Part shown: one piece after another, positions 4,655 to 48,582 of the stretch | How the letters are laid out: each line of letters begins with the position of its first letter | Numbering within the stretch: the first letter of the stretch is position 1 | From: a virus | DNA: 64,000 nt | Reading direction: 5' to 3' (one strand) | IMG/VR virus record: IMGVR_UViG_3300037424_000479 | Notes under the pieces: generated by a model | Databases searched by the model: none | Told to the model about the DNA's origin: nothing | The model's input: only the letters and a program-made list of their open reading frames with translations | Program-made: the position numbers and the translations under genes

Positions 4655-5071
4655 CTATTCCGATCCTCCCTCTATTATCTCAATAACAGCTTCAACATCT
4701 TTATAAGTCATGTCTCTTGCATAAGCCTCTACCCTTTCCCGTAAAGTTCTCTTATATTCACTATCAAATGTCTTCTTCAAAGAAGCATAATCCTTATCGG
4801 TTAGCGTGGGCTTCTCAAAGGTAATGTCCTCTAGGAGGAGTTTTACCACTTCATCGAGTCGGCTTCTCAGTGGTGAATTATCTTTTACTACAAAAGTAGC
4901 GCTCCAAGTTTTGTCTATTCCTAAAGCTGATAGAATAGAGGTCTCTGACGCCTTACTAATATAATTTTTTATATTCTCTTCTACTTTATCTTTAGAGTAG
5001 GAAGCTAACTTAATAGCAACTGTTTCATCCATTACCTTCTTTACTCTTTGCGCCTTGTCTTTATTCGTCAT
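4655..5071 (-). CDS. Hypothetical protein
   Basis: ORF in co-oriented gene run with SD. Confidence 0.7.
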   Translation of the reverse strand: MTNKDKAQRVKKVMDETVAIKLASYSKDKVEENIKNYISKASETSILSALGIDKTWSATFVVKDNSPLRSRLDEVVKLLLEDITFEKPTLTDKDYASLKKTFDSEYKRTLRERVEAYARDMTYKDVEAVIEIIEGGSE

Positions 5072-5084
5072 AGTGCCCTCCTTA

Positions 5085-5282
5085 TTAGTATTGTTCCGTT
5101 CCTGTTCTCAATTTATAATCATCAGCTACTACACGCCAGTATATAGGATTAGTATCTGATGCCAATTCATCACATATTATATTACAAATAGCTTTTACTG
5201 CGGTATCGGATAGTCTAGGTAAGTCAATAAACGCCTCCTTAAAGGTTTCATCATCAAAATTGCTATACATTAGTATCTTCAT
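5085..5282 (-). CDS. Hypothetical protein
   Basis: ATGA overlap with upstream gene. Confidence 0.65.
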   Translation of the reverse strand: MKILMYSNFDDETFKEAFIDLPRLSDTAVKAICNIICDELASDTNPIYWRVVADDYKLRTGTEQY

Positions 5283-13174: not shown

Positions 13175-13822
13175 ATGGATATAACAGACAAAGAGATAGA
13201 AGAGGATGTACAGAAGGAGATACAGGAATTTTTACCGGGATATGATAACGCCCTGGTAAAAGACCTGTCCTTAAAGCCAGTTGAGATAAGTTTCATTTAC
13301 TATTACGTCGAAGCGAATTTCAACGAGGGTGAGGCGTATCAGAAGGCGTACCAGTATAGCGATAAGTACAAGGCCAAGTACTACGCCAAGAAGCTACTCA
13401 AGCGCCCCGATATACAGGATGGGCTCAATCGTATCCTTGGGGAAGTGTGGAGGGAATCGGTACGGAAGCTTCCCCATCAAGTCATGGAGTCCTATCAGCG
13501 GGTGCTGAACCTTGATGTTAGCGATTATTATGATGACGATGGAATGGCAATACCGCTATCTAGCATCTCCAAGGAGAAGCGTTCTCTCATAGGGAATGTG
13601 CAGTATGTGATGAACAGTAAGACCGGGGCGGTATACATCCAGTATGACCTCCCGGATAAGAAAGATTCCCTTGCGGCGCTATTCTCTCTCATCAAGCTAC
13701 ATAAGGAACTGATAGGGGATGACGGTAAGGACGAGAACGCAGAGGCTTCTAAGAAGCGTAATGAGATATTCAATTCGGTGGATGATGTAGAGATGAAGCC
13801 TGTAGAGGCTATAGAAGGATAG
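13175..13822 (+). CDS. terS: Terminase small subunit
   Basis: FIYYYVEANFNEGEAYQKAY...AKKLLKRPDIQ HTH; DLPDKKDSLAAL segment. Confidence 0.8.
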   Translation: MDITDKEIEEDVQKEIQEFLPGYDNALVKDLSLKPVEISFIYYYVEANFNEGEAYQKAYQYSDKYKAKYYAKKLLKRPDIQDGLNRILGEVWRESVRKLPHQVMESYQRVLNLDVSDYYDDDGMAIPLSSISKEKRSLIGNVQYVMNSKTGAVYIQYDLPDKKDSLAALFSLIKLHKELIGDDGKDENAEASKKRNEIFNSVDDVEMKPVEAIEG

Positions 13823-14700: not shown

Positions 14701-15150
14701 GTGATGAAAAAGATATGGTTGTTGATGCTGATTGTGATTACTTCCTGTTCTCTTGGCTTTGATGTAGAAGAAGAACAGCCTATTGATAAACACTTCAAGA
14801 CGGTACATGAGGCGTGGATTTGGATAGCACGTAACGTAGAGTATGTGTCAGATCGGGATGTGCACGGGAAAGAAGAATACTGGCAGTATCCATGGGAAAC
14901 GTATCAGATGAAGACAGGGGATTGCGAGGATTATGCCATCCTGTTTATGTACTTCATGGAAGACATGGGGATAAAGAGTGAGTTTATAGCCATAGAAATA
15001 GAAGGGTATGGCTTTCATGCCGCTGTGTGTGTGAATGATCAGATACTATCCCCCCAACAATACGGGAGATATCACTACGTTGAGGAAGATGATATTATAA
15101 ATAGATTCTCATATCGGAGAATTTATAATATGATTCGCTATAAGCGATAA
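14701..15150 (+). CDS. Lipoprotein, transglutaminase-like cysteine protease (BTLCP-like)
   Basis: Signal MKKIWLLMLIVITSC; GDCEDYA catalytic Cys; FHAAV His. Confidence 0.8.
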   Translation: MMKKIWLLMLIVITSCSLGFDVEEEQPIDKHFKTVHEAWIWIARNVEYVSDRDVHGKEEYWQYPWETYQMKTGDCEDYAILFMYFMEDMGIKSEFIAIEIEGYGFHAAVCVNDQILSPQQYGRYHYVEEDDIINRFSYRRIYNMIRYKR

Positions 15151-26378: not shown

Positions 26379-27692
26379 ATGCGTTATTCTTGGGATATGA
26401 TAAAGAAAATTAGACAGTGGCCACATCTTCTTGGCAAGTTGGCGGGTAAAGATTTACTTACCCCACTGCATAGTGAATGGATTAAATATGTATGGGGACC
26501 AGAAGGTGCAGAAATTCCCCGTACCCTTATGGGACATCGTGGTAGCTATAAGACTACGGCTATTACCGAGATAGGTCCTATCTGGTATCTTGCTTTTAAC
26601 CCCGAGAGGCGTATAGCTGTAATCCGCAAAACCTTTACCGAGTCGGCTGAGGTGCTTCGTAACATATCAAACATCTGTATGCTGGAAGAGGTGCATGACT
26701 TCCTAGGGTTTGTATGGGGTGATCCTAACTGGACGTTCACTACTCGTAAAGCGGGTAAGATTGAATTCTCGGTGAAGCACAGTAAAACGAAAGAGGGAAA
26801 CCTCACCGCCTATGGACTCGACTCTAGTATGACGGGAAGTCACTTTACAGATGTATTAGGAGACGACTGCGAAACCATCATAGATCGTATATCTTCCGCA
26901 GAACGTGAAAAAACTAAGATGATTATGACGGAAGTGCGTACAAACATCCTTGATCCGGGTGGACGCTTCCGTGTAATAGGTACCCCCTGGGCTAAAGATG
27001 GTTTATTCTCTATTCTTCCCCCCGCTCGTAAATATCCTGTTGGTGTTACAGGACTTCTTACCGATGAACAGATAAAGATAAAGCGTGATTCTCAGCCCGC
27101 TCTTCTTTATGCGGTAAACTATGAGTTGGAATTCCAGAACGACGAAGATAACCTCTTCAATGATCCTCACATGGGTATATGGGATTTTACTGCGCGTACA
27201 GATGCTGTAGCTCATCTCGATGCCGCTTATGGAGGTAAAGATACTAATGCTCTTACTATTATGAAGCCCCTCCCTGATAATCGTATAAATGCTGTGGGCT
27301 TCCTGTACCAAGGACACGTAAAAGATTTCATCCCACAAATAGTAGACAAGATGAAATATTATAGAGCCTCTAAATTGTTTATGGAAAATAACTCGGATCG
27401 TGGATTCTCCCTGGAAGCTATTACATCTAATCCTGTTGCTGTAGAGGCTGGTATATGGCCTAAGTCCTATGCCGAATCTATGCAGAAGGAAATGAAGATA
27501 TCTAAATATTTATACGAGGGATGGAAAAGAATACAGTGGGCGAATGAAACAGATATGAATTATCTTGAACAAATTATAGATTGGACAGTTGAAGCAGATG
27601 TTCTCGACGATTCTGCAGATTCTGCGTCTTCCCTTCTTAGAGAGGCGGGTTTCGTAAAGACCCGAAACGTTCGAGACCTCTATCGTTGGTAA
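26379..27692 (+). CDS. terL: Terminase large subunit
   Basis: MGHRGSYKTT Walker A-like; VLGDD Walker B; IGTPW motif III; HLDAAYGG and DDSADS nuclease acidic residues. Confidence 0.93.
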   Translation: MRYSWDMIKKIRQWPHLLGKLAGKDLLTPLHSEWIKYVWGPEGAEIPRTLMGHRGSYKTTAITEIGPIWYLAFNPERRIAVIRKTFTESAEVLRNISNICMLEEVHDFLGFVWGDPNWTFTTRKAGKIEFSVKHSKTKEGNLTAYGLDSSMTGSHFTDVLGDDCETIIDRISSAEREKTKMIMTEVRTNILDPGGRFRVIGTPWAKDGLFSILPPARKYPVGVTGLLTDEQIKIKRDSQPALLYAVNYELEFQNDEDNLFNDPHMGIWDFTARTDAVAHLDAAYGGKDTNALTIMKPLPDNRINAVGFLYQGHVKDFIPQIVDKMKYYRASKLFMENNSDRGFSLEAITSNPVAVEAGIWPKSYAESMQKEMKISKYLYEGWKRIQWANETDMNYLEQIIDWTVEADVLDDSADSASSLLREAGFVKTRNVRDLYRW

Positions 27693-36690: not shown

Positions 36691-37049
36691 GAATTGCGTA
36701 TCGCCTCCTGGCGGGCGGTACGCAAGTGAACGCTCCTTATCGTAAAGAGAAGGGCAATGTCCCGATATTAGCTAAAAAAATAAATGATGAAACAGTAATC
36801 GTAGTAAGAAAAGATGTAAAAAAGTACGTAGACGATCCAGATTTTCTTATGGCTCTACAGTTATATAATATAACAAAAATGTGGGGCCTACCAAACGGAG
36901 CTGAGGGCTGGGTAAACGAACCCTGTGACTTCATAGACGCCATAACCGCCATTGAGTTGGAGGCAAAGCAGATAGAGCAGGAGGCTACACCCACACATGC
37001 CAATAACCCAAGAGAAAGCGGTATTAAAGGTAGTAGTCGAAGGAAGTGA
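36681..37049 (+). CDS. Tail assembly chaperone -1 frameshift extension (gpGT-like)
   Basis: -1 frame is open from the slippery site: KKLRIAYRLLAGGTQVNAPY...; WGLPNG..GWVNEP. Confidence 0.75.
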   Translation, partial: KKLRIAYRLLAGGTQVNAPYRKEKGNVPILAKKINDETVIVVRKDVKKYVDDPDFLMALQLYNITKMWGLPNGAEGWVNEPCDFIDAITAIELEAKQIEQEATPTHANNPRESGIKGSSRRK

Positions 37050-40000
37050 TCAGGCTGTTCGCCTTCTTCGCTCATTTGGACTAGCCGCCGAAAAAGAGAC
37101 TGGAAAAGCTGGGAATGCCTCCGTGAAGAATCTAGCACGGATGGCATCCCAGTTTATAGGTCTCGCCGCAGGAATACGGACCGCTTATAAAACAATAACC
37201 TCTGGTGTAGACTTCAACAAATTCATTGAAGAGCAGACTACTGCCTTCACTGTAATGTTGAAGTCTGCTGATGCCGCTAAAAATAAGATAGCTGAACTAT
37301 ATGATTTTGCGGTTAAATCCCCCCTTACATTTAAAGAAACTGTATCGGGGTCTAAGCAGTTGCTTGCTTACGGCTTCGCCGCTGAAGAGCTTGTACCCAC
37401 TATGAAAACCCTTGGTACTGTAGCAAAGGCTACCGGCCATTCTCTTGATGATATCTCCTACGTGTACGGTACGCTCAGGGCACAGGGTAGAGCATACACC
37501 CGTGACTTAATGCAGTTCGGTATGCGTGGTATTCCTATATATGAAGAATTAGCCGCTGTAATGGGTGTAAACCAAGAAGAATTAAAGAAGATGACAGAGC
37601 AGGGTAAAGTAGGATTTAGGGAAGTAGAAGAAGCATTTAAGAATATGACATCTGAAGGCGGGCGTTTTGCCGGTCTAATGGATCAGTATATGAAAACGCT
37701 GAGTGGTAGACTAAGTATGCTTACCGACATTGCACAGCAAGCCTCTGGTGCTTTATCTAAAGGTATATTTGATGCTCTATCTGATAACATTCCTGCCATT
37801 ATGGATGCTCTTGATGGTAGTAGGGATACCTTACGGGTATTTGGGGAAGAGCTGGGGGTTATAGCGGGGGCACTCGTCAACCTCGTAGCTACTCTGATAA
37901 AAATGCTTCCTCTTATTATTACTATAGGAAAAATAGTTCTTGCAGGGGCCTTTCTTAAATTTATATTATCCCTGCCCGCATTACTAGCTACTGCTACGGC
38001 GGCTGTTGGTGCGTTTACATCCTCACTTGCATGGATGCAAGTGACCATGATGTCCACGTCTATCGCAAGCGGTGTGTCTTCTATGGTGTCTTCCATAGGA
38101 ACGCTCACCAGAGCACTTATAGCATTTGCCGCTAACCCAGCTGTATTGGCTATACTTGCAATAGGGGCGGCTATCGGGGTGGCGTCCTCTTTGGCGGCTA
38201 AAGAATCAACCCGGCGCAAAGACCTAATGGAGAGCGACCCTGGTGCTCTTCTAAGGGAAGATGTATATCGTTCTCAGTTAATCGGGCAATACTCTGGTGG
38301 ACAGGGTGATGTACCTGTGGCTATACCCAAGGGTGTGTCCGATATAAAAAAGATAGCCGAACAATATAAAGTATCTATAACAGAGGCCGCCACTATATTG
38401 AAGGATATGGGACACATATCTGCCTCTACCCTGCGACAAGTACAGGATAGTATGGATGCGTCCGAGTTGAAGAGAGAGATGTCTGACCTCCGTAAGAAAA
38501 AAGATCGTTGGGAGATAGAGGCTGAATGGCTTGCTACATTTGCTCAGGGAGACAAGGGTAAAAAAGAAAGGTATCTAGGTGTAAATGAATCGTATGGGGG
38601 AAGAGCGGCTATTGACTATATAGCTTTATTTGAAAAAGACCGTACAGCTATGAAAGAGGCTTTGGGGTCTGTCTTCAGTAAAGATGATCTAAAAGATAGT
38701 CTAAAAGAAGAGGCAGGGGAGCTAAGACAGAAACTTATAGAAGGGGCGGAAGTTCTTGATTACACTGATCCTACCGTAACATTTGATGATAAACTTCGTG
38801 CCCGTTTAAAAGAAATCGATATCTTATTAGAGGGGCTTTCTAGTGGGGCGGCTGAAAGTGTTAAAAAGGTAGTTAAGGATATATGGTATGTCCGGGAACA
38901 GCAAGTTAAGGCCACCGACAGTCAATTAGATGATCTTGAATTGGCTAGGGACAAAGAACTGGCTGTTGCTCAAAGTAAATATGCACAAGAAGAAATTTCA
39001 TATATGGCTCACTGGAAAGCCGTGCAAGCGATAGATATAAAGTATATGAAAGATATCGAGAAAGAACGCAAGAGCGTCATGGAGAAGATGCGAACCACCA
39101 TAATTGAGGCGTATAATACCATGTTGGAGGGAAGTTCTACTTTCTTCGATAACTTGAAGATTATTGTGGCATCTCTGTATAAGTCACGAATTCCTGGTAC
39201 AGAGGGCGCGGCGGCAGGATACCAAGCGCTCTCAGCTACACAAGGAACGGATACAGGAGCATTGCTAACTGGTGGTGATCCTATGGCCATGTTTATACAA
39301 AAGATGCTAGAGATGATAGTAGCTATCGAGAATGTAAATAAAGTACTGAACTTTATAGGCACCATAGTAGATGCGTCGGGGCTAATTCTTATCCCCCTAA
39401 TAAATTCGGGGTTCTCTGGGTTGGCTTCTGCCTTGGAAGAGATAGGTGTGGTTGTGGGGCAGATACTGGCTCCAATATTCAATACGCTTGGGGTCATTCT
39501 TCAGTTTACGGCTGGTATCTTAAAGACTACACTTATCCCCATTCTTCAGTTAGTTGGGGGTGCTTTTGCCTGGCTCAATGATTATGTAATTGTCCCCTTT
39601 GGTAACGGGGTTATAGACGTATTGAATGTGTTAATTAGAGGTATAAATGCGATATTCGGGACACATATTCAAATACTGGAACATCTAAAGACTACTGCCG
39701 AAGCGTTTGCTCTGTCTATGGAGACTGCTACAGACAGTCTTGGGGCCACTATAAGTTATCTGGAAGCTAAACTAAATAAGCTCATAGATGCTCAAGTAAA
39801 GTCGGCGCAAGAGTATCTTGAAGTGGGTGCAATCTCGGTAGATGAGTATCAGAGGCTAATAGACCAAGCTAATGCGATGCGCCCTAATGAAGATGAGCTT
39901 GTTTCAATAGCAGATAAGCAGTTGACTACTTTACAAGAGATATACGATCGGTTACAGGAGTTATATGCACAAGAGAAAGAAGGCGATAATGCTCTGGTCA

Positions 40001-40212
40001 CTTACGATCCCTACTCCTCTATAAGAGACCTTGGTGATCTCTATCCTGCCGGAGGGGGGGAGGTTATTGATTTTGGTAAAATCACCCCTAAGGCGGGTAT
40101 GAGTCTAAATATATATGTAGCTGGCTCAGTTACTAGTGAACGTGACCTGGCTAAAACAATAAGTGATCAAATATATATCAACAAGGCACGGGGTTTGACC
40201 CCTGCTAGATAA
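36997..40212 (+). CDS. Tape measure protein
   Basis: 1071 aa, helical; FAVKSPLT, YGTLRAQGR, QFGMRGIPIYEELA tape-measure N-terminal domain. Confidence 0.95.
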   Translation: MPITQEKAVLKVVVEGSDQAVRLLRSFGLAAEKETGKAGNASVKNLARMASQFIGLAAGIRTAYKTITSGVDFNKFIEEQTTAFTVMLKSADAAKNKIAELYDFAVKSPLTFKETVSGSKQLLAYGFAAEELVPTMKTLGTVAKATGHSLDDISYVYGTLRAQGRAYTRDLMQFGMRGIPIYEELAAVMGVNQEELKKMTEQGKVGFREVEEAFKNMTSEGGRFAGLMDQYMKTLSGRLSMLTDIAQQASGALSKGIFDALSDNIPAIMDALDGSRDTLRVFGEELGVIAGALVNLVATLIKMLPLIITIGKIVLAGAFLKFILSLPALLATATAAVGAFTSSLAWMQVTMMSTSIASGVSSMVSSIGTLTRALIAFAANPAVLAILAIGAAIGVASSLAAKESTRRKDLMESDPGALLREDVYRSQLIGQYSGGQGDVPVAIPKGVSDIKKIAEQYKVSITEAATILKDMGHISASTLRQVQDSMDASELKREMSDLRKKKDRWEIEAEWLATFAQGDKGKKERYLGVNESYGGRAAIDYIALFEKDRTAMKEALGSVFSKDDLKDSLKEEAGELRQKLIEGAEVLDYTDPTVTFDDKLRARLKEIDILLEGLSSGAAESVKKVVKDIWYVREQQVKATDSQLDDLELARDKELAVAQSKYAQEEISYMAHWKAVQAIDIKYMKDIEKERKSVMEKMRTTIIEAYNTMLEGSSTFFDNLKIIVASLYKSRIPGTEGAAAGYQALSATQGTDTGALLTGGDPMAMFIQKMLEMIVAIENVNKVLNFIGTIVDASGLILIPLINSGFSGLASALEEIGVVVGQILAPIFNTLGVILQFTAGILKTTLIPILQLVGGAFAWLNDYVIVPFGNGVIDVLNVLIRGINAIFGTHIQILEHLKTTAEAFALSMETATDSLGATISYLEAKLNKLIDAQVKSAQEYLEVGAISVDEYQRLIDQANAMRPNEDELVSIADKQLTTLQEIYDRLQELYAQEKEGDNALVTYDPYSSIRDLGDLYPAGGGEVIDFGKITPKAGMSLNIYVAGSVTSERDLAKTISDQIYINKARGLTPAR

Positions 40213-40223
40213 GGAGCAATACT

Positions 40224-42551
40224 ATGACTGATATAAGGATAAGTGAGCTTCCTGCTGTTAGTTCTGCGGGGGGTGTGGATGTACTCCCTGTTGTTCAATC
40301 AGGGGTCACTAAAAAGGCATCTGTTACTCAGATTAACCAGGTGCTTAAAGATGAATTAACGCCTCTTATTAATGCGAAAGCTCCTTTGGAGTCTCCTGCT
40401 TTGACGGGCAACCCTACTGCTCCTACTCCTACTCTTGGGGATAATGATACTTCTATAGCTACGACCGCTTTCGTTAATGCAGAGATTGCGGCGGATACTG
40501 CTCATCTTGCGCCCCTTGCATCCCCCGCCTTAACTGGTACACCGACAGCCCCTACAGCGGCTGTAAATACCAGTACTACTCAGATAGCTACGACCGCTTT
40601 TGTTAACGCTGAAGTAGCGAATGATACTGCTTATCTTGCTGATTTTCGTTCTTATGTATCTTCTCGTACCTACGCTTACAATGACCCTGTATTTTATTTA
40701 GGTGTTCCGTATCGTTCCCTTTCATCAGGAAATACAGGGAATACCCCCGATACCTCTCCTACTTATTGGGAAGTTACGGGGGGTGGCTCTGGTGCAGTTA
40801 ACCCTGGTATCAATTATAAGAATGGACAGATGGATAGTTCTGTTAATGGTTATGTCTCGTATAAAAATGCCGCTCAAGTTACCCCTGTTAATGGTACAGG
40901 TGGATCGCCAGGGATAACCTTCGCTTACTCTGCAATAGCTCCTATTGTTGGTACAGGTTCTGGTGTGCTTACTAAAGATACTGCGAATCGTCAAGGAGAG
41001 GGTGTATCTTATGACTTCACCGTTGATCCTGGCATGCGAAATCAGCCTCTTAAAATAACTTTTAATTACCTGGCCTCTTCTAGTTATGTTGATGGAGATA
41101 TTGGTGTGTATCTATATGACATCACCAACGCCACGGTTCTATCTCCCTCTATTGTGGGCGTTCCTGCTTCTGGTACATCACCTGGAAAATTTGAATGCTC
41201 AACTTGGTTGAATAATAACAGCGGAAGTTACCGACTCATATTCCATATACAGAGTACGTCTGTATTAGCATATACATTCAAAGTGGATAACATACAAATA
41301 CAGCCACTTATTCCTTCTCTTGGTGCCGTCATAAGTGAGTGGCAAAGTTATACTCCCGCTGTTTTTTCTGGAAATGGTTTTACACTTACTCGTGCTGAAT
41401 ATCGTAGGGTTGGTTCCTCGATAGAACTTCGTGGTCTGCTTACATATGGCAGTCCTATAACTGGTTCTCCGGCAATAGGGCTTCCTGCCGGTCTATATGT
41501 AGTTTCTAGCTTAAATAATGAAGCTATTGCGATGGGTACGGCAATTGCACTCGATTTCGGGAGCAATTATTTTGGAAACATTGATTTACGAATACCTTCT
41601 GGTGGTAACTATTTTAGCTTTATAGGAGTATCCTCAACAGTTCCTCATACATGGGCAGTCAATGATACTATTACCTATACTGCTTCTGTCCCCATCGCTC
41701 AATGGTCTGCTAACACTAATTTGGTGGAAGACTTTACGGAGTATGCGAGCTATGATCAGAGCACTGCAATAGCTCCAACAGGGACTGTTAGTGGTGTATA
41801 TGAAGAAGGAATTAATGGCTCATTATTTCCGAATATAACAGCACCTATTTTGGGTGCAGGGTACACATCAATTCCGTTTAGATGGAAGCGCCCTTATCAA
41901 ATAGGAGATTTAGTTCTATTTGAGGAATCTCCTGATAACGGAGCTACTTGGAGAGCGGTAACTAACTATCTTGTGGATGTTGCAGGATCAGCATATTATG
42001 GGCTTTTCCTGGTAGTTAATCCTGGAACTTCTAATGGTTCTGTTAGATTTAATTATGCTGGGCGTAAAGATGCAGGGGTGGGACTCCCATCCTCTTTCGG
42101 TGGTGTAGGCTCCCCATGGGACTCATTACGTTCTATATCATTCAGATGGCGCGTCCGCAAAATCTCAAACGGTAATACTGCTGAAGTACCCCCTGTTGTT
42201 AGAGCGGAGTACACTGGTGGATCGTCTGCGGCAGGAACTATAATAAACTATGTTACAAAAGTAGAAGATACTCATAATGCTGTAACGCCTGGGGTTGGTA
42301 CCTGGAAATTTACCGCTCCTATTTCTGGGATATATTCTGTTGAAGGTATGCTATATGCTTCTGTTGCTGAAAATCTTTTTCTAATAAAGAATGGGGTAAC
42401 TTTTAGAAACCTAAAGTTTGGTGGAGTACAGATGGTTGACTATAGTGTTTCAGTAAGACTATTAGCTGGTGATTATATAGGTATTACTAGTAATTCTATG
42501 TCAACAAACATAGCTGATCCTTGGATAGTTATAACCCGCATCGGTGGCTAA
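40224..42551 (+). CDS. Tail fibre / receptor-binding protein
   Basis: Two 43-aa APLxSPALTGxPTAPT fibre repeats; CBM5/12-like YSRTY...TYWEV; C-terminal C1q-like FTAPISGIY. Confidence 0.8.
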   Translation: MTDIRISELPAVSSAGGVDVLPVVQSGVTKKASVTQINQVLKDELTPLINAKAPLESPALTGNPTAPTPTLGDNDTSIATTAFVNAEIAADTAHLAPLASPALTGTPTAPTAAVNTSTTQIATTAFVNAEVANDTAYLADFRSYVSSRTYAYNDPVFYLGVPYRSLSSGNTGNTPDTSPTYWEVTGGGSGAVNPGINYKNGQMDSSVNGYVSYKNAAQVTPVNGTGGSPGITFAYSAIAPIVGTGSGVLTKDTANRQGEGVSYDFTVDPGMRNQPLKITFNYLASSSYVDGDIGVYLYDITNATVLSPSIVGVPASGTSPGKFECSTWLNNNSGSYRLIFHIQSTSVLAYTFKVDNIQIQPLIPSLGAVISEWQSYTPAVFSGNGFTLTRAEYRRVGSSIELRGLLTYGSPITGSPAIGLPAGLYVVSSLNNEAIAMGTAIALDFGSNYFGNIDLRIPSGGNYFSFIGVSSTVPHTWAVNDTITYTASVPIAQWSANTNLVEDFTEYASYDQSTAIAPTGTVSGVYEEGINGSLFPNITAPILGAGYTSIPFRWKRPYQIGDLVLFEESPDNGATWRAVTNYLVDVAGSAYYGLFLVVNPGTSNGSVRFNYAGRKDAGVGLPSSFGGVGSPWDSLRSISFRWRVRKISNGNTAEVPPVVRAEYTGGSSAAGTIINYVTKVEDTHNAVTPGVGTWKFTAPISGIYSVEGMLYASVAENLFLIKNGVTFRNLKFGGVQMVDYSVSVRLLAGDYIGITSNSMSTNIADPWIVITRIGG

Positions 42552-42668: not shown

Positions 42669-43091
42669 ATGGCAGACGATACTGAGATTCGCACCAGGGT
42701 ATACGACACAGAAAAGAATCTTGCTAAGTTATGGACATTCGTCTATGAACTTGCGTCTGTCGTGTGGGGGGATAATACACGAAGGGATAATGGCATTCGT
42801 TCCCGCGTCATAGCTTTAGAGGCCCGTGCTAAAGAAGCTGAAGATGATAGAGACTCCCTTCGTAGAGAGCTTCGTCACTATTTAGACGTAAGTAGAGAAG
42901 AAACGTGTCATGGATTAAAGGCGCTTGCTGAAAGAGAGCAATCCGCCGAAAATGCTGTAAAGGAGGAGATTCCAGTGAAAATAGAAACCATCAAAGCGAA
43001 TAGTGCACAGAAAACACAAATTATTATCTTAGTAGGTGTAATTGTATCTGCCCTTCTAAATACGTTAGGGCTATTAATGAGGGTGTCCTAA
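42669..43091 (+). CDS. Coiled-coil protein with C-terminal TM, holin-like
   Basis: Single C-terminal TM; directly upstream of the peptidase. Confidence 0.5.
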   Translation: MADDTEIRTRVYDTEKNLAKLWTFVYELASVVWGDNTRRDNGIRSRVIALEARAKEAEDDRDSLRRELRHYLDVSREETCHGLKALAEREQSAENAVKEEIPVKIETIKANSAQKTQIIILVGVIVSALLNTLGLLMRVS

Positions 43092-43552
43092 TGATATATA
43101 CCGCACGTTTAGCTCATTTAGAACAGCCTCCCAAATACTCTGTCGGTACTATTATCAAACGAGGGGATGTTGTGGGGCGTATGGGAGATTCGGGTGCCGC
43201 TGATGGGGCACATCTACATCTCGATGTTGTGCGTGGTATGCAGACAGGTAGATATACGCTGGGAGATTTGGCACTGGGAAAACCTGAAGCCGATGCTAAA
43301 CAGGCCACTCTATTTATAGATGATGAACTGTTTGGTGTCCTGCCTCTCATTACTACCTATTATGCCGATCCCCGTTATTATAAAAAGTACGCTAAATTTC
43401 ATTATGGATACGATGTTGTTCCAGAAGATCGCTTATATAGTCAGAAACATTTCGATATTCATTGGAATCGTAGTATGCCTGGTAGAGTTACAAAGGTGTA
43501 TATAAATGATCCCGGATACGGAAACTGTATCCAGATTGCGTTTGAAATATGA
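43091..43552 (+). CDS. M23-family peptidase (endolysin), circularly permuted
   Basis: GDVVGRMGDSGAADGAHLH at N-terminus; HYGYD and GYGNCIQI at C-terminus. Confidence 0.85.
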   Translation: MIYTARLAHLEQPPKYSVGTIIKRGDVVGRMGDSGAADGAHLHLDVVRGMQTGRYTLGDLALGKPEADAKQATLFIDDELFGVLPLITTYYADPRYYKKYAKFHYGYDVVPEDRLYSQKHFDIHWNRSMPGRVTKVYINDPGYGNCIQIAFEI

Positions 43553-44139
43553 GTTTGCTTGATTTATTTCATAAGGCATGTAACAGCGCTGATAAAACAG
43601 CGGGCAATGAAACGCAATATGCTATAACAGAGGATACTTGTAACGTATACCTCGCTATACAAGGTTCAGTTGAATTTGAGGATTGGATATATAATTTTGA
43701 TTTTATAGCTAAACCATATAGAAATATGGGAGATGTGTGGTATACACATAGAGGCTTTGCTAATTGTTGGAAACTAGCTAGGGATCAGATTGTACAAGAG
43801 GTGCTTGACACATTAGGCAATAAAAGGTTAGTAATATTGGGGTATAGTCATGGAGCGGCAATAGCTCTATTAGCCCATGAGTATTTTGTTTATAATGGTT
43901 ATTCCCCTGAGACATATTGCTTCGGTTGCCCCCGTGTATTGTGGATACCTAATAAACGCATACTGTCTCGATTCACTAATGTGCATCTTATTTCACGGCG
44001 TGGGGATCTAGTTACTAAAGTGCCTTTTGCCTGGATGGGATTTAGACATCCAGTAAAGCAAACTTTATTCGGTTCTTCAGCTTTAACATGGTGGCGTCGC
44101 CATCTCATACCAGAATACATAGAAGCATTAGCAGAGTGA
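43549..44139 (+). CDS. Class 3 lipase (alpha/beta hydrolase)
   Basis: YLAIQGS..FEDW; HRGF; GYSHG nucleophile elbow; FGCPRV; DLVTKVP. Confidence 0.9.
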   Translation: MSLLDLFHKACNSADKTAGNETQYAITEDTCNVYLAIQGSVEFEDWIYNFDFIAKPYRNMGDVWYTHRGFANCWKLARDQIVQEVLDTLGNKRLVILGYSHGAAIALLAHEYFVYNGYSPETYCFGCPRVLWIPNKRILSRFTNVHLISRRGDLVTKVPFAWMGFRHPVKQTLFGSSALTWWRRHLIPEYIEALAE

Positions 44140-44146
44140 GGTACAC

Positions 44147-46801
44147 ATGGCACGAATGGTTTACATCGATTTTCAGGATGGAGTAGGTTTCCGAGAGATA
44201 TCCAATCTTGTTAAATTTGACACCTTAGAGATACGCCTTCGTGCCTGTGCCGATAACTGGCATTATGCTCAGAATGAAGCTTTCTTTGATATTATATACG
44301 ATCCCATTATCTATCCCCTACTGTGTCAGGCATCTAAAGAAACTATCATAAAGATAGTAGGGACAGGTGGTGCTAGGATAAATACTGAGGAGTTGAGAAG
44401 CATTCTTACTGAAGATGATCTTTATATAGCCACTGAAGAGGGAAATATAATCCCTATTTTCTATGGCAGGGTGCCCCCTACAAAGGCAAGATCGTTTAAT
44501 GGTATTATCGATAACACCATCTTTCATTGTGAGGCCCTAGATGAGTTGTCTCTACTGAAGGTAAAGACAGGAGACATATGTTTTCGTAATTATTATATAA
44601 TGAACCCCGCAGACAAAGCTCATTCTATTGTACATCAGTTAGCGTATATAGCAGGGTTGTCTGATTATCAAATAGATAACACTATATCTATTATGAATGT
44701 TATAACTGCATTAACTCCCCCTTCACCTGATGATCTAATCCTTGATGTGCTTGATACCCTCCTATTTGAACATGGATACACCCTTAATATGAGTATAGCA
44801 GGACAGCTTTCTCCCATTAAGTGGATGCGCCAGGGTGAAACATATCCTGATGAATTCAATGTTAACAACATAGTGAAGTCTGTTTCGATTGAAGATGCTT
44901 TAAAAACGTATGACGGTTCTGAAGTTATATATTATGAATTAGCTGAGGCTACTACATCCAGTGGTGATACTAATATGCTATTATATCAGGACTCCAATCT
45001 CCCATATGATAGCCGTGGTAACTTTGAGGGTTTCCCTGTCCCCGCTGGACTGCGTTATCCCCCCAATGCCGCTGTTATAGATGAAACCACTGGGGGGTTT
45101 CAAAAGGTATATCAAGATTATGATGACAGGGCTGTAAAATACTGGACAAACGAAGCCATTGTTAAAAAGTTAAATTATAATTACAAAGCGTTCGATTCAG
45201 ATTACTCCGCAATTATAGCTACATCCGATTGGTCTTTGGAATACAAGACCGATTCAGGAATTACTCTTGTGGGTACCCCTGTATATGAGAATAGGCGGGC
45301 AGAGATTGTATTCCTAAATAATACAGTAGACTCCTCTAAGAAGATATATTATATTTTTATATACGGTAAGGTTCTGTATAAATCTACAGAGCGCAAAGCT
45401 ATTGTAAATAACACAGGAGCGGCTGATGCTGAATTAGATTCGTATGTGAGCACGTATCTTTTTAATAAGGCTGACGCGGATGTGTTGGCTAAGGTTATGG
45501 CGGAACAGCATAAATCTAATGACACTTATTTTGTATTTGAGAGCGAACAGGGGGAGCCTGTTGGACAGCTAGTACGTATCGTATTCAATGATGCTTCTGT
45601 ATCCGACACCGTGGGGGTTGACGCTGTTGGTATAATTACCGAGCGATATTATGTAGAGGAAACACAGCTATACAAATATCGTGTAAAGCGTTATTCTACT
45701 GCGGCACTACCTGCTCTTACTAGTCAAGAAGTACACGTAATACCTAACGTACAAGCCAACATGGCCGCGTCTAATAGCTCACAATTAACCCCTGTAGTGG
45801 TTAACGAGTACGCCCCCAAGTACATGGGTAGGTATAATTCTGCACATCCTGCTGTTAGAAATAATGGGGATTGGTGGATGGTGTATGATACAGATGATAC
45901 CCCTATCCAGAGGGGTGTGTGGTATGATAACAATGGAGTTGCTACAAGGATAACTACTGCTTCATCCGCTCTTCTACAGGCCAAATTTGTAGAGGCTTTA
46001 ACTGATGTGGCATGGGCAGAGGCACAGGGAATTTATGGTGTTTCATCTAATTATGGGATAAATACGCTGTTCCAATCACTGGGGGCTGTTGTTGCCTTCT
46101 TTACAAGTGTGTTCGCTCAAGATATAACCGCTACAGGGTCTATAACGGGCTCTATATTAAGAACCTCAGATAAATACGCTCAGTTATCTAATGAAGCGGG
46201 AGATGAAGCAGGCTATAAAGGTGTACTTGTTTCCAGTACCCCTATAAACTCTACAAGCCCCACAGGCAGTATTGCACAACTTGTAAATCTATATAACTTA
46301 TTTGGGGCACGGGTGCCTTCATTAGTGTTCCAGAGTTTTCTAAGCGGGGTGGTACAATTAAGGGCGTATATAACTTTTAATATTGCGACACTTGTAATGA
46401 AGAATGCTTATTCAGGACTGTCTTGGACTTTGGACGGTAGAACAGCTACACTACGTAAGGTGGCAACTACATATAATAGTGATACTACCTCATTACTTAC
46501 AGCAGATTATATCTCTGGGAATCACTCAGGGAACAGACTTACTAATTCATTTAGAAGCCTGCATGGGTCTTATCAAGTCGGGGCGTTGTATAATCAAATG
46601 AGCAATGACATCCCTAATGTGGGAGATATGATTTTAGTAACGGGGGGGTATTATCTCGGAACCCTTTTTCTAACAGTATCCAGAGCGGAGCGACTGAGTT
46701 CTACGACAATACGTTTATATGTAGGCTTTATAGGGGGTGTCACTGCACATGATATTGCCGCCGCAGATACTACAGGGGCGCACTTTAGTCTAGCATGGTA
46801 A
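44147..46801 (+). CDS. Tail tip / hub protein with fibre-like C-terminus
   Basis: 884 aa, beta-rich; VHQLAYIAG, TLNMSIAGQL hub-like segments; PKYMG...GDWW repeat. Confidence 0.65.
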   Translation: MARMVYIDFQDGVGFREISNLVKFDTLEIRLRACADNWHYAQNEAFFDIIYDPIIYPLLCQASKETIIKIVGTGGARINTEELRSILTEDDLYIATEEGNIIPIFYGRVPPTKARSFNGIIDNTIFHCEALDELSLLKVKTGDICFRNYYIMNPADKAHSIVHQLAYIAGLSDYQIDNTISIMNVITALTPPSPDDLILDVLDTLLFEHGYTLNMSIAGQLSPIKWMRQGETYPDEFNVNNIVKSVSIEDALKTYDGSEVIYYELAEATTSSGDTNMLLYQDSNLPYDSRGNFEGFPVPAGLRYPPNAAVIDETTGGFQKVYQDYDDRAVKYWTNEAIVKKLNYNYKAFDSDYSAIIATSDWSLEYKTDSGITLVGTPVYENRRAEIVFLNNTVDSSKKIYYIFIYGKVLYKSTERKAIVNNTGAADAELDSYVSTYLFNKADADVLAKVMAEQHKSNDTYFVFESEQGEPVGQLVRIVFNDASVSDTVGVDAVGIITERYYVEETQLYKYRVKRYSTAALPALTSQEVHVIPNVQANMAASNSSQLTPVVVNEYAPKYMGRYNSAHPAVRNNGDWWMVYDTDDTPIQRGVWYDNNGVATRITTASSALLQAKFVEALTDVAWAEAQGIYGVSSNYGINTLFQSLGAVVAFFTSVFAQDITATGSITGSILRTSDKYAQLSNEAGDEAGYKGVLVSSTPINSTSPTGSIAQLVNLYNLFGARVPSLVFQSFLSGVVQLRAYITFNIATLVMKNAYSGLSWTLDGRTATLRKVATTYNSDTTSLLTADYISGNHSGNRLTNSFRSLHGSYQVGALYNQMSNDIPNVGDMILVTGGYYLGTLFLTVSRAERLSSTTIRLYVGFIGGVTAHDIAAADTTGAHFSLAW

Positions 46802-46932: not shown

Positions 46933-47895
46933 ATGCCTGTCGGAAAAACGAGAGTAACAGAAGTAATCGATTATGCGATGCTACATGGGGATAATGAGGC
47001 GGCTACCACATTCGGAATATCGCTGGGAGGAATAGAGCGATATAGGCGTAAATATAAAGAGATATACGGTGAGAGTGCCGATCTTGTTATGGCACTAAAG
47101 AAACAACTTACCGATGTAGAGCTGAAGATGATGCTTAATACGAGTAAGCGGCGTCCAGTTGTTACAGAAAGTAACCCTGTATCTATTGAAGGGGATCGAA
47201 TCAAATTCGGTGTTATAACGGATACGCATATAGGACATAAGGAATTTATACCCGAGTATCTTCGTACTGCGTTTGATATTATAAATAACTTTGGGGCTCA
47301 ATTTACGTTTCATGCAGGTGATGTAGTTGAAGGACTTATGAATCGCCCTGGGCATTTCTTTGAGTGTTCTCATTATGGATATAAAGCTCAAAGGGATGAA
47401 AGTGTTGCTCAGTTATCTTATTATAATAAGCCCCTATATGTTATCAACGGTAACCATGACGCGAGCATCAATAGCAAGTTGGGGGTAGGTATAGATATCG
47501 TAGAAGATATATGTGAGCGCATACCCAACGCTATATACCTTCCTGGTGATCCTGCTGATATTGAGATTAACGGAATTCGTTTTAGACTCTTCCATGGAAG
47601 GGATCGTGGTGGTTCCTACGCAAAGTCGTTTAGACCACAAAAGATACTGGATAGTTTCGGTATAGATATCCCGGACGTGCTTATGATAGGCCATGCTCAT
47701 TCAGCAGACTATTGTAAGTATAAAGGATGCCACCTAATCGATGGTGGGTGCATACAGCGTCTTACAGATTTTCAACGCGGCAATAAACTATCTGCTGATG
47801 TTGGATTCTGGACGGTAGATATGACGGTGCGAAACGGGAAGATCATAGCTATCTCCCCTACATTCTATGATCTAGAGGAGGTTATGAATGGCTAA
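46933..47895 (+). CDS. Calcineurin-like metallophosphoesterase with N-terminal HTH
   Basis: TDTHIG, HAGDVVEG, GNHD, HG, GHAH motifs. Confidence 0.9.
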   Translation: MPVGKTRVTEVIDYAMLHGDNEAATTFGISLGGIERYRRKYKEIYGESADLVMALKKQLTDVELKMMLNTSKRRPVVTESNPVSIEGDRIKFGVITDTHIGHKEFIPEYLRTAFDIINNFGAQFTFHAGDVVEGLMNRPGHFFECSHYGYKAQRDESVAQLSYYNKPLYVINGNHDASINSKLGVGIDIVEDICERIPNAIYLPGDPADIEINGIRFRLFHGRDRGGSYAKSFRPQKILDSFGIDIPDVLMIGHAHSADYCKYKGCHLIDGGCIQRLTDFQRGNKLSADVGFWTVDMTVRNGKIIAISPTFYDLEEVMNG

Positions 47896-48097
47896 CAGTG
47901 CAAAGAAGATATCTCTGGCGGGACAGATACTCATGGCTGTATGGGTGGCCGGGTGGTCTGCCTATATGTTCCTTGGGCCGAAGGTTATACCTATGATGGA
48001 TATAATTACTTCTGGTGTTGCTATTGCGGCGGCTTTTTCTCCTGTATACCTTAGTATATGGATAGATATGTTCAAGAAGAAGTCTGGTAATGAATAA
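47888..48097 (+). CDS. Holin (2 TM)
   Basis: 69 aa, two hydrophobic helices, basic C-terminus. Confidence 0.65.
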   Translation: MANSAKKISLAGQILMAVWVAGWSAYMFLGPKVIPMMDIITSGVAIAAAFSPVYLSIWIDMFKKKSGNE

Positions 48098-48467
48098 TGT
48101 TAAAACGCTGGCTATTAGTGTCGCTATTGGTATTGTCCTTTCCGGTATTGCTTTATTCGCAATCGGACAGAGCTTCTATAGTGGACGGATTGACAAACTT
48201 ACAGATCAAATTGCTCTCCTTGAAACAGGAAATAGAGACCTCACAGAGCAAAATACTAGCCTTAGAGAGCTTAATAGTACAGCTACAGTCGAGCTTGGAC
48301 AGCTCAGAAAGGAGCTACGAGACCAGGCTGAGTACCATAGAAGCGAGCTTGGCAGAATCAAAGGCGATCTTAGCTCTATCTCAGGAGACCTTAGCAAAAC
48401 AGGAGTTGGCATACAAGACGTTATCGACGGAATTGAACGCATTAAAGACATGGTTAAAAATTTATAA
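48090..48467 (+). CDS. i-spanin-like protein (N-terminal TM plus coiled coil)
   Basis: TM then heptad repeats; follows holin. Confidence 0.55.
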   Translation: MNNVKTLAISVAIGIVLSGIALFAIGQSFYSGRIDKLTDQIALLETGNRDLTEQNTSLRELNSTATVELGQLRKELRDQAEYHRSELGRIKGDLSSISGDLSKTGVGIQDVIDGIERIKDMVKNL

Positions 48468-48582
48468 AACAGGTATATACGTTCTCGGCGGCGTAGTCGC
48501 TGTAGAGACGGTATACATCATCATAACATATATCATAGGGGGGAATAATGGTACAACCGACGCACGCAATGACACTTACTAA
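48097..48582 (+). CDS. Spanin-like partner (signal peptide, coiled coil, C-terminal TM)
   Basis: ATG overlaps holin stop (TAATG); heptads; no Cys. Confidence 0.6.
   Translation: MLKRWLLVSLLVLSFPVLLYSQSDRASIVDGLTNLQIKLLSLKQEIETSQSKILALESLIVQLQSSLDSSERSYETRLSTIEASLAESKAILALSQETLAKQELAYKTLSTELNALKTWLKIYKTGIYVLGGVVAVETVYIIITYIIGGNNGTTDARNDTY

Follow-up and report, generated by a model that had tools for sequence, protein, structure and literature searches.

The open reading frame at 43091-43552 encodes a protein of the M23 family whose two halves stand in swapped order, and we explain the evidence as a whole by a circularly permuted, catalytically competent M23 enzyme of the LytM/lysostaphin type that acts most likely as an endolysin, a reading to which we give a probability of about 0.7. 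The frame lies in a stretch of 64,000 nucleotides (the window) from a phage contig of ~79 kb. The parts of this reading differ in strength: we have hardly any doubt that the circular permutation is real, an active zinc metallopeptidase is highly probable from the sequence, and the role as an endolysin is likely, if less firmly so. The permuted M23 family is previously undescribed and occurs almost exclusively in lysis cassettes of uncultured phages.

The translation of the frame agrees exactly with the layout of motifs that an earlier note on this DNA had claimed. The protein begins with M-I-Y-T-A-R-L-A-H-L, carries G-A-H-L-H-L-D at residues 39-45 and F-H-Y-G-Y-D at 103-108, and has G-Y-G-N-C-I-Q-I-A-F-E-I, at 142-153, as its C-terminus; its tail reads ...FHYGYD...GRVTKV...GYGNCIQIAFEI and holds H104, D108 and G142-N145. 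The motifs follow each other as YxHL, HxH, linker, HxxxD and GYGN, and since all of them are present but the test for the canonical order failed, we class the protein as a permuted form and not with the standard members. By mapping from published LytM and lysostaphin chemistry, we take H104, D108 and H43 to be the zinc ligands and H9 and H41 to be the catalytic histidines (Table 1). Four residues of the linker (F75, D77, L80 and F81) are nearly invariant in the family, and the part behind it, residues 84-153, runs from a lead strand (ITTYYADP.Y) through HxxxD and a family-specific W125-N-R-S to the GYGN strand, which comes last. Sequence analysis of the 153 residues found no signal peptide and no transmembrane (TM) segment. 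With an in-frame stop 30 codons upstream of the ATG, nothing M23-like before that ATG and overlaps with the genes on both sides, no missing half can be concealed by a miscalled start.

Table 1. Position of the permuted M23 gene, its segments and putative active-site residues, and the surrounding genes in the window
Feature	Position	Strand	Remarks
Small-terminase gene	13175-13822	+	
Large-terminase gene	26379-27692	+	
Tape measure	36997-40212		
Tail-fibre-like gene	40224-42551		
Coiled-coil protein, 140 aa	42669..43091	+	C-terminal TM; stop overlaps M23 start (TAATG)
Circularly permuted M23 metallopeptidase ORF (predicted)	43091..43552	+	153 aa + stop
M23 C-half equivalent, residues 1-48	43091..43234	+	PF01551 positions, profile and model matches
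H9 on YxHL-type strand	43115-43117	+	Putative catalytic residue
H41 of HxH motif	43211-43213	+	Putative catalytic residue
H43 of HxH motif	43217-43219	+	Putative Zn ligand
Linker, residues 49-83	43235..43339	+	Conserved, mainly helical; old C-terminus joined to old N-terminus
M23 N-half equivalent, residues 84-153	43340..43549	+	Profile alignments and model matches
H104 of HxxxD	43400-43402	+	Putative Zn ligand
D108 of HxxxD	43412-43414	+	Putative Zn ligand
GYGN strand ending the protein	43514-43525	+	
Class-3 lipase (GYSHG)	43549..44139	+	Pfam Lipase_3, E 1e-17; start overlaps M23 stop (ATGA)
884-aa ORF	44147-46801	+	Between lipase and metallophosphoesterase
Calcineurin-like metallophosphoesterase	46933-47895	+	End lies 8 nt inside holin-like gene
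Small membrane protein, 69 aa, holin-like	47888..48097	+	Hydropathy only; 4.3 kb downstream of M23
Two overlapping spanin-like frames	48090..48582	+	By architecture
Spanin-like frame, 125 aa	48090-48467	+	N-terminal TM and coiled coil
Spanin-like frame, 161 aa	48097-48582	+	Signal-like N-terminus, coiled coil, C-terminal TM

The swapped order is shared by a whole family. A word-indexed search returned 35 homologs that are full length (148-174 aa) and 43-66% identical, and an exhaustive search 214 representatives at E < 1e-3, with 92 below 1e-10; among the proteins that were fetched, 142 cluster representatives hold the entire permuted domain in one stretch and in the same order, so that the search for other permuted homologs proposed in the earlier note was answered by 35 close and 142 wider ones. 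In 33 of the 142, the domain sits inside a longer protein, at either end, and for these a miscalled start is no explanation for the order. The fusion partners, a GH25 muramidase domain with two LysM repeats (P0149), an NAGPA phosphodiester glycosidase and a C-terminal fragment of a subtilase, indicate cell-wall substrates and imply the role of a peptidoglycan hydrolase. Fused proteins include P0084, P0106, P0110, P0123, P0135, P0142, P0083 and P0149, NAGPA being the commonest partner, and the NAGPA fusions suggest action on phosphodiester-linked wall polymers. Outside the uncultured phages, a tblastn search of 50,697 phage records (INPHARED) gave only C-half matches in tape-measure proteins, BFVD holds no family member, and an alignment-based scan of species-representative cellular genomes found no permuted M23 relative.

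Several comparisons with canonical M23 proteins, each made in a different way, agree on the inversion. The Pfam profile PF01551 matches residues 3-48 with positions 45-89 of its 96 only, at 30.5 bits against a cut-off of 28.7, and relatives of the family score 26.6-49.9 bits; residues 75-153 and 95-153, scanned alone, gave no Pfam match. Thus, of the earlier proposal to align each half to this profile, the first half succeeded, whereas the C-terminal part alone falls below Pfam detection. Canonical proteins, when aligned directly, pair with the two halves the other way round: in P0150, target residues 146-197 correspond to query residues 96-149 (i-E 0.02) and 208-253 to 4-49, and in P0179, 186-231 correspond to 101-150 (i-E 4e-4) and 243-287 to 6-50, with the same inverted pairing in P0177, P0183 and P0184. 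The family profile reaches ShyA, TagE and Csd3 at E of ~4e-9, lysostaphin at 1.5e-7 and LytM at 3e-6, and it pairs with ShyA in like manner (133-150 with 286-303, then 2-76 with 307-379, starting only three residues on), as it does with TagE and Csd3, the inverted first domains against 4rny, TagE and ShyA being below threshold. In these alignments, H9, H41 and H43 fall on the equivalent motifs of ShyA, TagE, Csd3, lysostaphin and LytM, and H104 and D108 on the HxxxD of the canonical proteins.

The order was also restored computationally. From the family alignment, we built HMMs with the columns in native and in re-permuted order and compared both with 15 canonical M23 targets. The re-permuted HMM produced a single contiguous alignment in 15/15 targets, ~110 residues long for targets such as P0179, P0150 and P0184, and a higher best-domain score in every one; the gains ranged from 5 to 32 bits and averaged 19, and for P0179 the score went from 43.2 to 75.6. 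The old termini (...GYGN.....FEx / MxYT.R.AHL...) cause no break in these alignments, and at the junction canonical P0179 and P0150 carry 3-4 extra loop residues and canonical P0184 is two residues shorter, without a loop insertion. As a control, every cut point along the protein was tried: the mean score was 42.7 bits for the native order and 27-32 for cuts within the C-half block, and it rose to a plateau of 61-62 bits only where a new N-terminus at residues 53-89 restored the canonical order, which puts the canonical N-terminus in the linker and the present termini at the GYGN/YxHL hairpin. The homologous segments are swapped, the re-joined alignment is contiguous and the gain is confined to one cut region, the marks of a circular permutant. 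Together with the 35 close and 142 wider homologs, which keep both the order and the catalytic residues, the cut-point scan excludes a chance resemblance. The swap of halves first noticed by eye is thus borne out by the half match to PF01551, the inverted alignments, the re-permuted HMM and the cut-point scan, as well as by the half-by-half superposition described below.

In the mechanism that we propose, the chain would begin at the YxHL-type histidine strand and continue with HxH, pass through a conserved linker of ~35 residues made up of the old C-terminal tail and the old N-terminal lead, and then reach HxxxD, with the GYGN strand last. The new termini would lie where canonical M23 enzymes have a short beta-hairpin loop, and with the termini at this hairpin, the strands at the two ends of the chain should come to pair in the canonical manner; H104, D108 and H43 would then form one zinc site again, and the catalytic histidines would be H9 and H41. 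The enzyme would be a cytoplasmic endolysin released through the holin, the absence of a signal peptide and of TM segments making holin dependence most likely, and it would cut the peptide cross-links of a diderm host's peptidoglycan, with a spanin-like protein working alongside and a class-3 lipase as a further partner in some of the phages.

The case for an endolysin comes mainly from the relatives. Across the loci compared (20 IMG/VR viral loci and L001-L004), holin-like and spanin-like membrane proteins flank the permuted M23 gene in ~17 of the 20, and likewise in L001, L002 and L004, which makes the endolysin the most likely role. The usual 5' neighbour, in about two thirds of the loci, is a single-TM protein of 100-135 aa; on the 3' side come a TM protein of 61-98 aa and then a protein of 150-170 aa that, with its N-terminal signal or lipobox and C-terminal TM, resembles a unimolecular spanin, sometimes with a GxSxG lipase in between. 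Homologs of the window's lipase occupy this place within the cassette, between the holin-like and spanin-like genes, in three loci (L012:4698-5285, L019:4664-5254 and L004:8647-9264). The L004 lipase is apparently split over two ORFs, and in L016 a GxSxG ORF (1669-2217) stands in the lipase position with no BLASTP match to the lipase.

The arrangement in the window itself is less tidy. The lipase gene and the gene for the 140-aa coiled-coil protein are each translationally coupled to the M23 gene; a weak homolog of the latter, with the same architecture, precedes the M23-like gene of L002 (L002:7490-7999, E 4e-4), and the protein may serve to regulate lysis, as a partner of the holin or as an anchor. 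The two coiled-coil proteins have a GDNG[IL]R motif in common. Downstream, the 884-aa ORF, which matched nothing in Pfam or PHROG, probably encodes a tail or receptor-binding protein and interrupts the lysis genes of this phage. We considered it, together with a 775-aa neighbour, as part of a conserved unit and rejected this, since no homolog of either accompanies the M23-like gene in other loci. The 161-aa spanin-like frame has the same architecture as the 150-170-aa proteins downstream of the M23-like gene in relatives, and the 125-aa frame weakly matches (E 3e-4) an alternative frame of the equivalent gene in L009; the two-frame arrangement may thus be conserved. The L009 frames lie at 4660-5118 and 4662-4994. 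The metallophosphoesterase, too, has homologs after M23 cassettes (L006:5234-6229, L009:5336-6313 and L001:8062-9048, at 34-37% identity and E 1e-56) and is a recurrent, unexplained neighbour of lysis genes. The endolysin label of the earlier note thus stands on the conserved cassette of the relatives, and it fits the window less well, the holin-like and spanin-like genes being at a distance from the M23 gene.

The main rival, a virion-associated peptidoglycan hydrolase of the tail or ejection stage, used at infection rather than lysis, owes its place to this position of the gene among tail genes, between the tape-measure and tail-fibre-like genes on one side and the 884-aa protein on the other. 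M23 domains are common in tape-measure proteins and tail lysins, phi29 gp13 being a tail enzyme of this kind; among the PHROG matches to the C-half motif are M23-bearing tape-measure and minor-head proteins, and the M23-like gene of L002 follows homologs of the P22 ejection proteins. The protein is, however, small and stands alone, without a structural or fibre domain, its relatives are immediately flanked by holin-like and spanin-like genes in the proportion given above, and no other cell-wall hydrolase, and hence no other endolysin candidate, was found among the ~33 ORFs scanned in the window, though another lysin may lie in the part of the ~79-kb contig beyond the window's 64 kb. We therefore consider a virion lysin unlikely and keep to the endolysin. 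As to the rest of the window, its phage nature is seen in the two terminases and a Mu-F-like head protein, the large terminase being at ~35% identity to its nearest cultured relative, which is not close. The two terminase genes are ~12.5 kb apart, with a block of small genes between them; just after the small terminase lies a transglutaminase-like cysteine protease of 149 aa (14701-15150, plus strand; Peptidase_C93 / Transglut_core, E ~3e-7), and an HNH endonuclease ORF is found at 926-1729 on the minus strand.

The predicted structure fits a single, rebuilt M23 domain. AlphaFold2, run on an alignment of 35 sequences, gave one compact domain with a mean pLDDT of 97.3 and a pTM of 0.91, the terminal strands reaching ~97-98. 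Foldseek, which depends on the order of the chain, found no M23 protein in PDB, BFVD or AFDB Swiss-Prot and returned only weak pieces of RNAP flap, NusG and GatB; a second look at its list with VIA gave no M23 protein either. All structure aligners used were order dependent, and we read the miss as a consequence of the permutation. A new fold was considered as the explanation and rejected because VIA-align, in a search that does not depend on Foldseek, and the ESM Atlas recover M23 half by half. With VIA-align, model residues 70-153 superpose on residues 2-70 of EnpA (6smk_A; Z 2.8, 2.9 A over 69 residues, 22% identity), and the front half on the opposite part of other solved structures: residues 1-78 on EnvC (8tzl_E 323-382; Z 2.8, 2.2 A, 60 residues) and DipM (7qrl_C 544-609; Z 2.5, 3.9 A, 65), 1-83 on 3nyy_A (196-274; Z 2.5, 3.5 A, 70) and 1-94 on phi29 gp13 (3csq_A 239-325; Z 2.5, 4.2 A, 83); the Z scores of these half-domain matches are all low (2.5-2.8). 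In the ESM Atlas, residues 1-153 find a match at TM 0.90 in the cluster of the family itself (51 members, 82% viral), and canonical M23 clusters cover either 1-85 or 73-153 at TM ~0.4. AFDB holds one family member, A0A523Z1Q5 (157 aa), with TM 0.94 over the whole length. The comparison of a predicted model with M23 structures, another of the checks proposed beforehand, thus ended with a confident single domain, each half of which superposes by itself on the opposite half of solved enzymes.

From the pairing of the termini as the two strands of the canonical hairpin, with a loop insertion of 0-4 residues, and from their high pLDDT, we infer that the native N- and C-termini are adjacent in space. 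The compact and confident model, the hairpin termini and the joint invariance of residues in both halves together strongly imply, as far as a predicted model can, a single zinc site assembled from both halves. A chain that runs from C-half to N-half could in principle complement another chain, and folding might then require domain swapping in a dimer or higher oligomer, two chains contributing one half each to every active site; we find this improbable, as the monomer model is compact and very confident up to its terminal strands and the junction is a simple hairpin, favouring pairing within the chain.

Conservation within the family supports a working enzyme. H104 and D108 occur without exception (142/142 representatives), H41 and H43 are each missing once (141/142), and H9 is present in 139/142, gaps at truncated N-termini accounting for the other three; the observation that all zinc ligands are kept, made on one sequence, thus extends to the family. 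W125, Y96, Y143 and F75 are further conserved positions, specific to the family. Many LytM domains are noncatalytic activators, and degenerate factors such as EnvC and NlpD have lost the metal ligands. That EnvC and DipM are among the structural matches might place the protein with such factors, as a regulator or activator of hydrolases like EnvC, NlpD and DipM, but with five active-site residues essentially invariant in the 142 representatives, we regard a degenerate protein as very improbable.

The DNA itself is sound. An independent JGI contig of 1.4 kb carries the identical ORF with the same upstream gene, and the window's DNA is present in sediment metagenomes: in three other runs, contigs match with 0 differences and bridge both ends of the gene, and neither joints nor loose ends are reported. 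Two contigs of run X2 leave 10 nt (43281-43290) uncovered between them, and the entire stretch is spanned only by the probable source run, at a depth of 36. Misassembly, named beforehand as what would undo the finding, is excluded by the 1.4-kb contig, the three runs and the same architecture in 20 viral loci. Tandem M23 domains are common and the C-half of one copy joined to the N-half of the next would give the same order, but we put almost no weight on an artefact of assembly or a dead fragment across such a junction, given that contigs assembled independently from other samples are identical, that 142 diverged clusters share the boundaries and keep the catalytic residues essentially invariant, that the ORF is tightly packed and overlaps both neighbours, and that the model forms a confident single domain.

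A tandem arrangement may lie at the origin of the family. Tandem M23 domains are frequent among the canonical matches (P0144, P0157, P0162, P0163, P0166, P0170, P0177 and P0181). The beginning of the linker shows a weak alignment to the tail behind HxH in ShyA and Csd3, and residues 86-108 correspond to the canonical stretch that leads into HxxxD, as fits duplication followed by truncation; we infer that the permuted form originated in this way. One protein, P0145, was considered as an intermediate of the duplication and rejected, its Pfam matches showing it to be a piece of a canonical protein that has tandem M23 domains and RHS repeats.

The earlier note knew of no described permuted M23 endolysin, and this agrees with our look-ups in the literature and in Pfam, NCBIfam, PHROGs, INPHARED and BFVD. 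The permuted form is described neither in the Pfam, NCBIfam or PHROG models, the latter two having no dedicated model for it, nor in deposited phage genomes, and the full-text literature searched holds no description; subscription journals lie mostly outside that literature, and an earlier mention is possible. Canonical M23 enzymes (PF01551, MEROPS M23: LytM, lysostaphin, ShyA, MepM, EnpA, zoocin A and phi29 gp13) have the same motifs; unlike them, the permuted protein has its halves swapped, its termini in the GYGN/YxHL hairpin and a linker of ~35 residues, and it is without a signal peptide, a cell-wall-binding domain or an occluding N-terminal segment. The same permuted fold is present in A0A523Z1Q5 and in the ESM Atlas cluster of 51 members, and names and literature are silent on the permutation: the former is called just "Peptidase M23 domain-containing protein", a name given automatically from a half-domain Pfam match.

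Permutation as such has precedents. PMC6403190, citing Anantharaman and Aravind 2003, describes the NlpC/P60 families YaeF/poxvirus G6R and LRAT-like as circularly permuted with the order of catalytic residues swapped, a precedent for a permuted catalytic domain of a peptidoglycan hydrolase; the fold is unrelated, however, its chemistry is that of a papain-like Cys/His enzyme and not of a zinc metallopeptidase, and these are not families of phage lysis cassettes. Within the HABAS or barrel-sandwich-hybrid superfold (RNAP beta flap, NusG, biotinyl/lipoyl), where M23 is placed, permutations are known (PMC11515920). The order-dependent fold searches with the permuted M23 protein gave their weak matches to two of these, the RNAP flap and NusG. 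Those permutations, however, separate distant domain families of different function, whereas the one described here took place inside a single enzyme family and retained the active site.

Few cell-wall hydrolases have been studied as much as M23 peptidases such as lysostaphin, LytM, ShyA and MepM, which are under development as enzybiotics. A natural and widespread permutant means that the M23 fold tolerates termini moved to the GYGN/YxHL hairpin, which opens new fusion points at both ends, and both are used in nature, as the GH25-LysM, NAGPA and subtilase fusions attest. With a half-domain Pfam match at a marginal score, no PHROG or NCBIfam model and a miss by Foldseek, such lysins are under-annotated in viromes. 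That the new termini alter groove access or specificity, as the earlier note suggested, is speculation. It is a rather doubtful further step to see the permutation as adaptive rather than neutral, and the enzyme, the upstream coiled-coil membrane protein and the lipase as a lysis system of their own for sediment-dwelling diderm hosts; if the permutation were adaptive, the family would offer a minimal M23 lysin of 150 residues that lacks a binding domain and has a substrate groove or activation unlike those of canonical M23. Overall, the family marks a recurrent cassette of uncultured phages, consisting of a TM protein, the permuted M23, a holin-like protein, an optional lipase and a spanin-like protein, and is of relevance to research on cell-wall hydrolases, phage lysis and protein topology.
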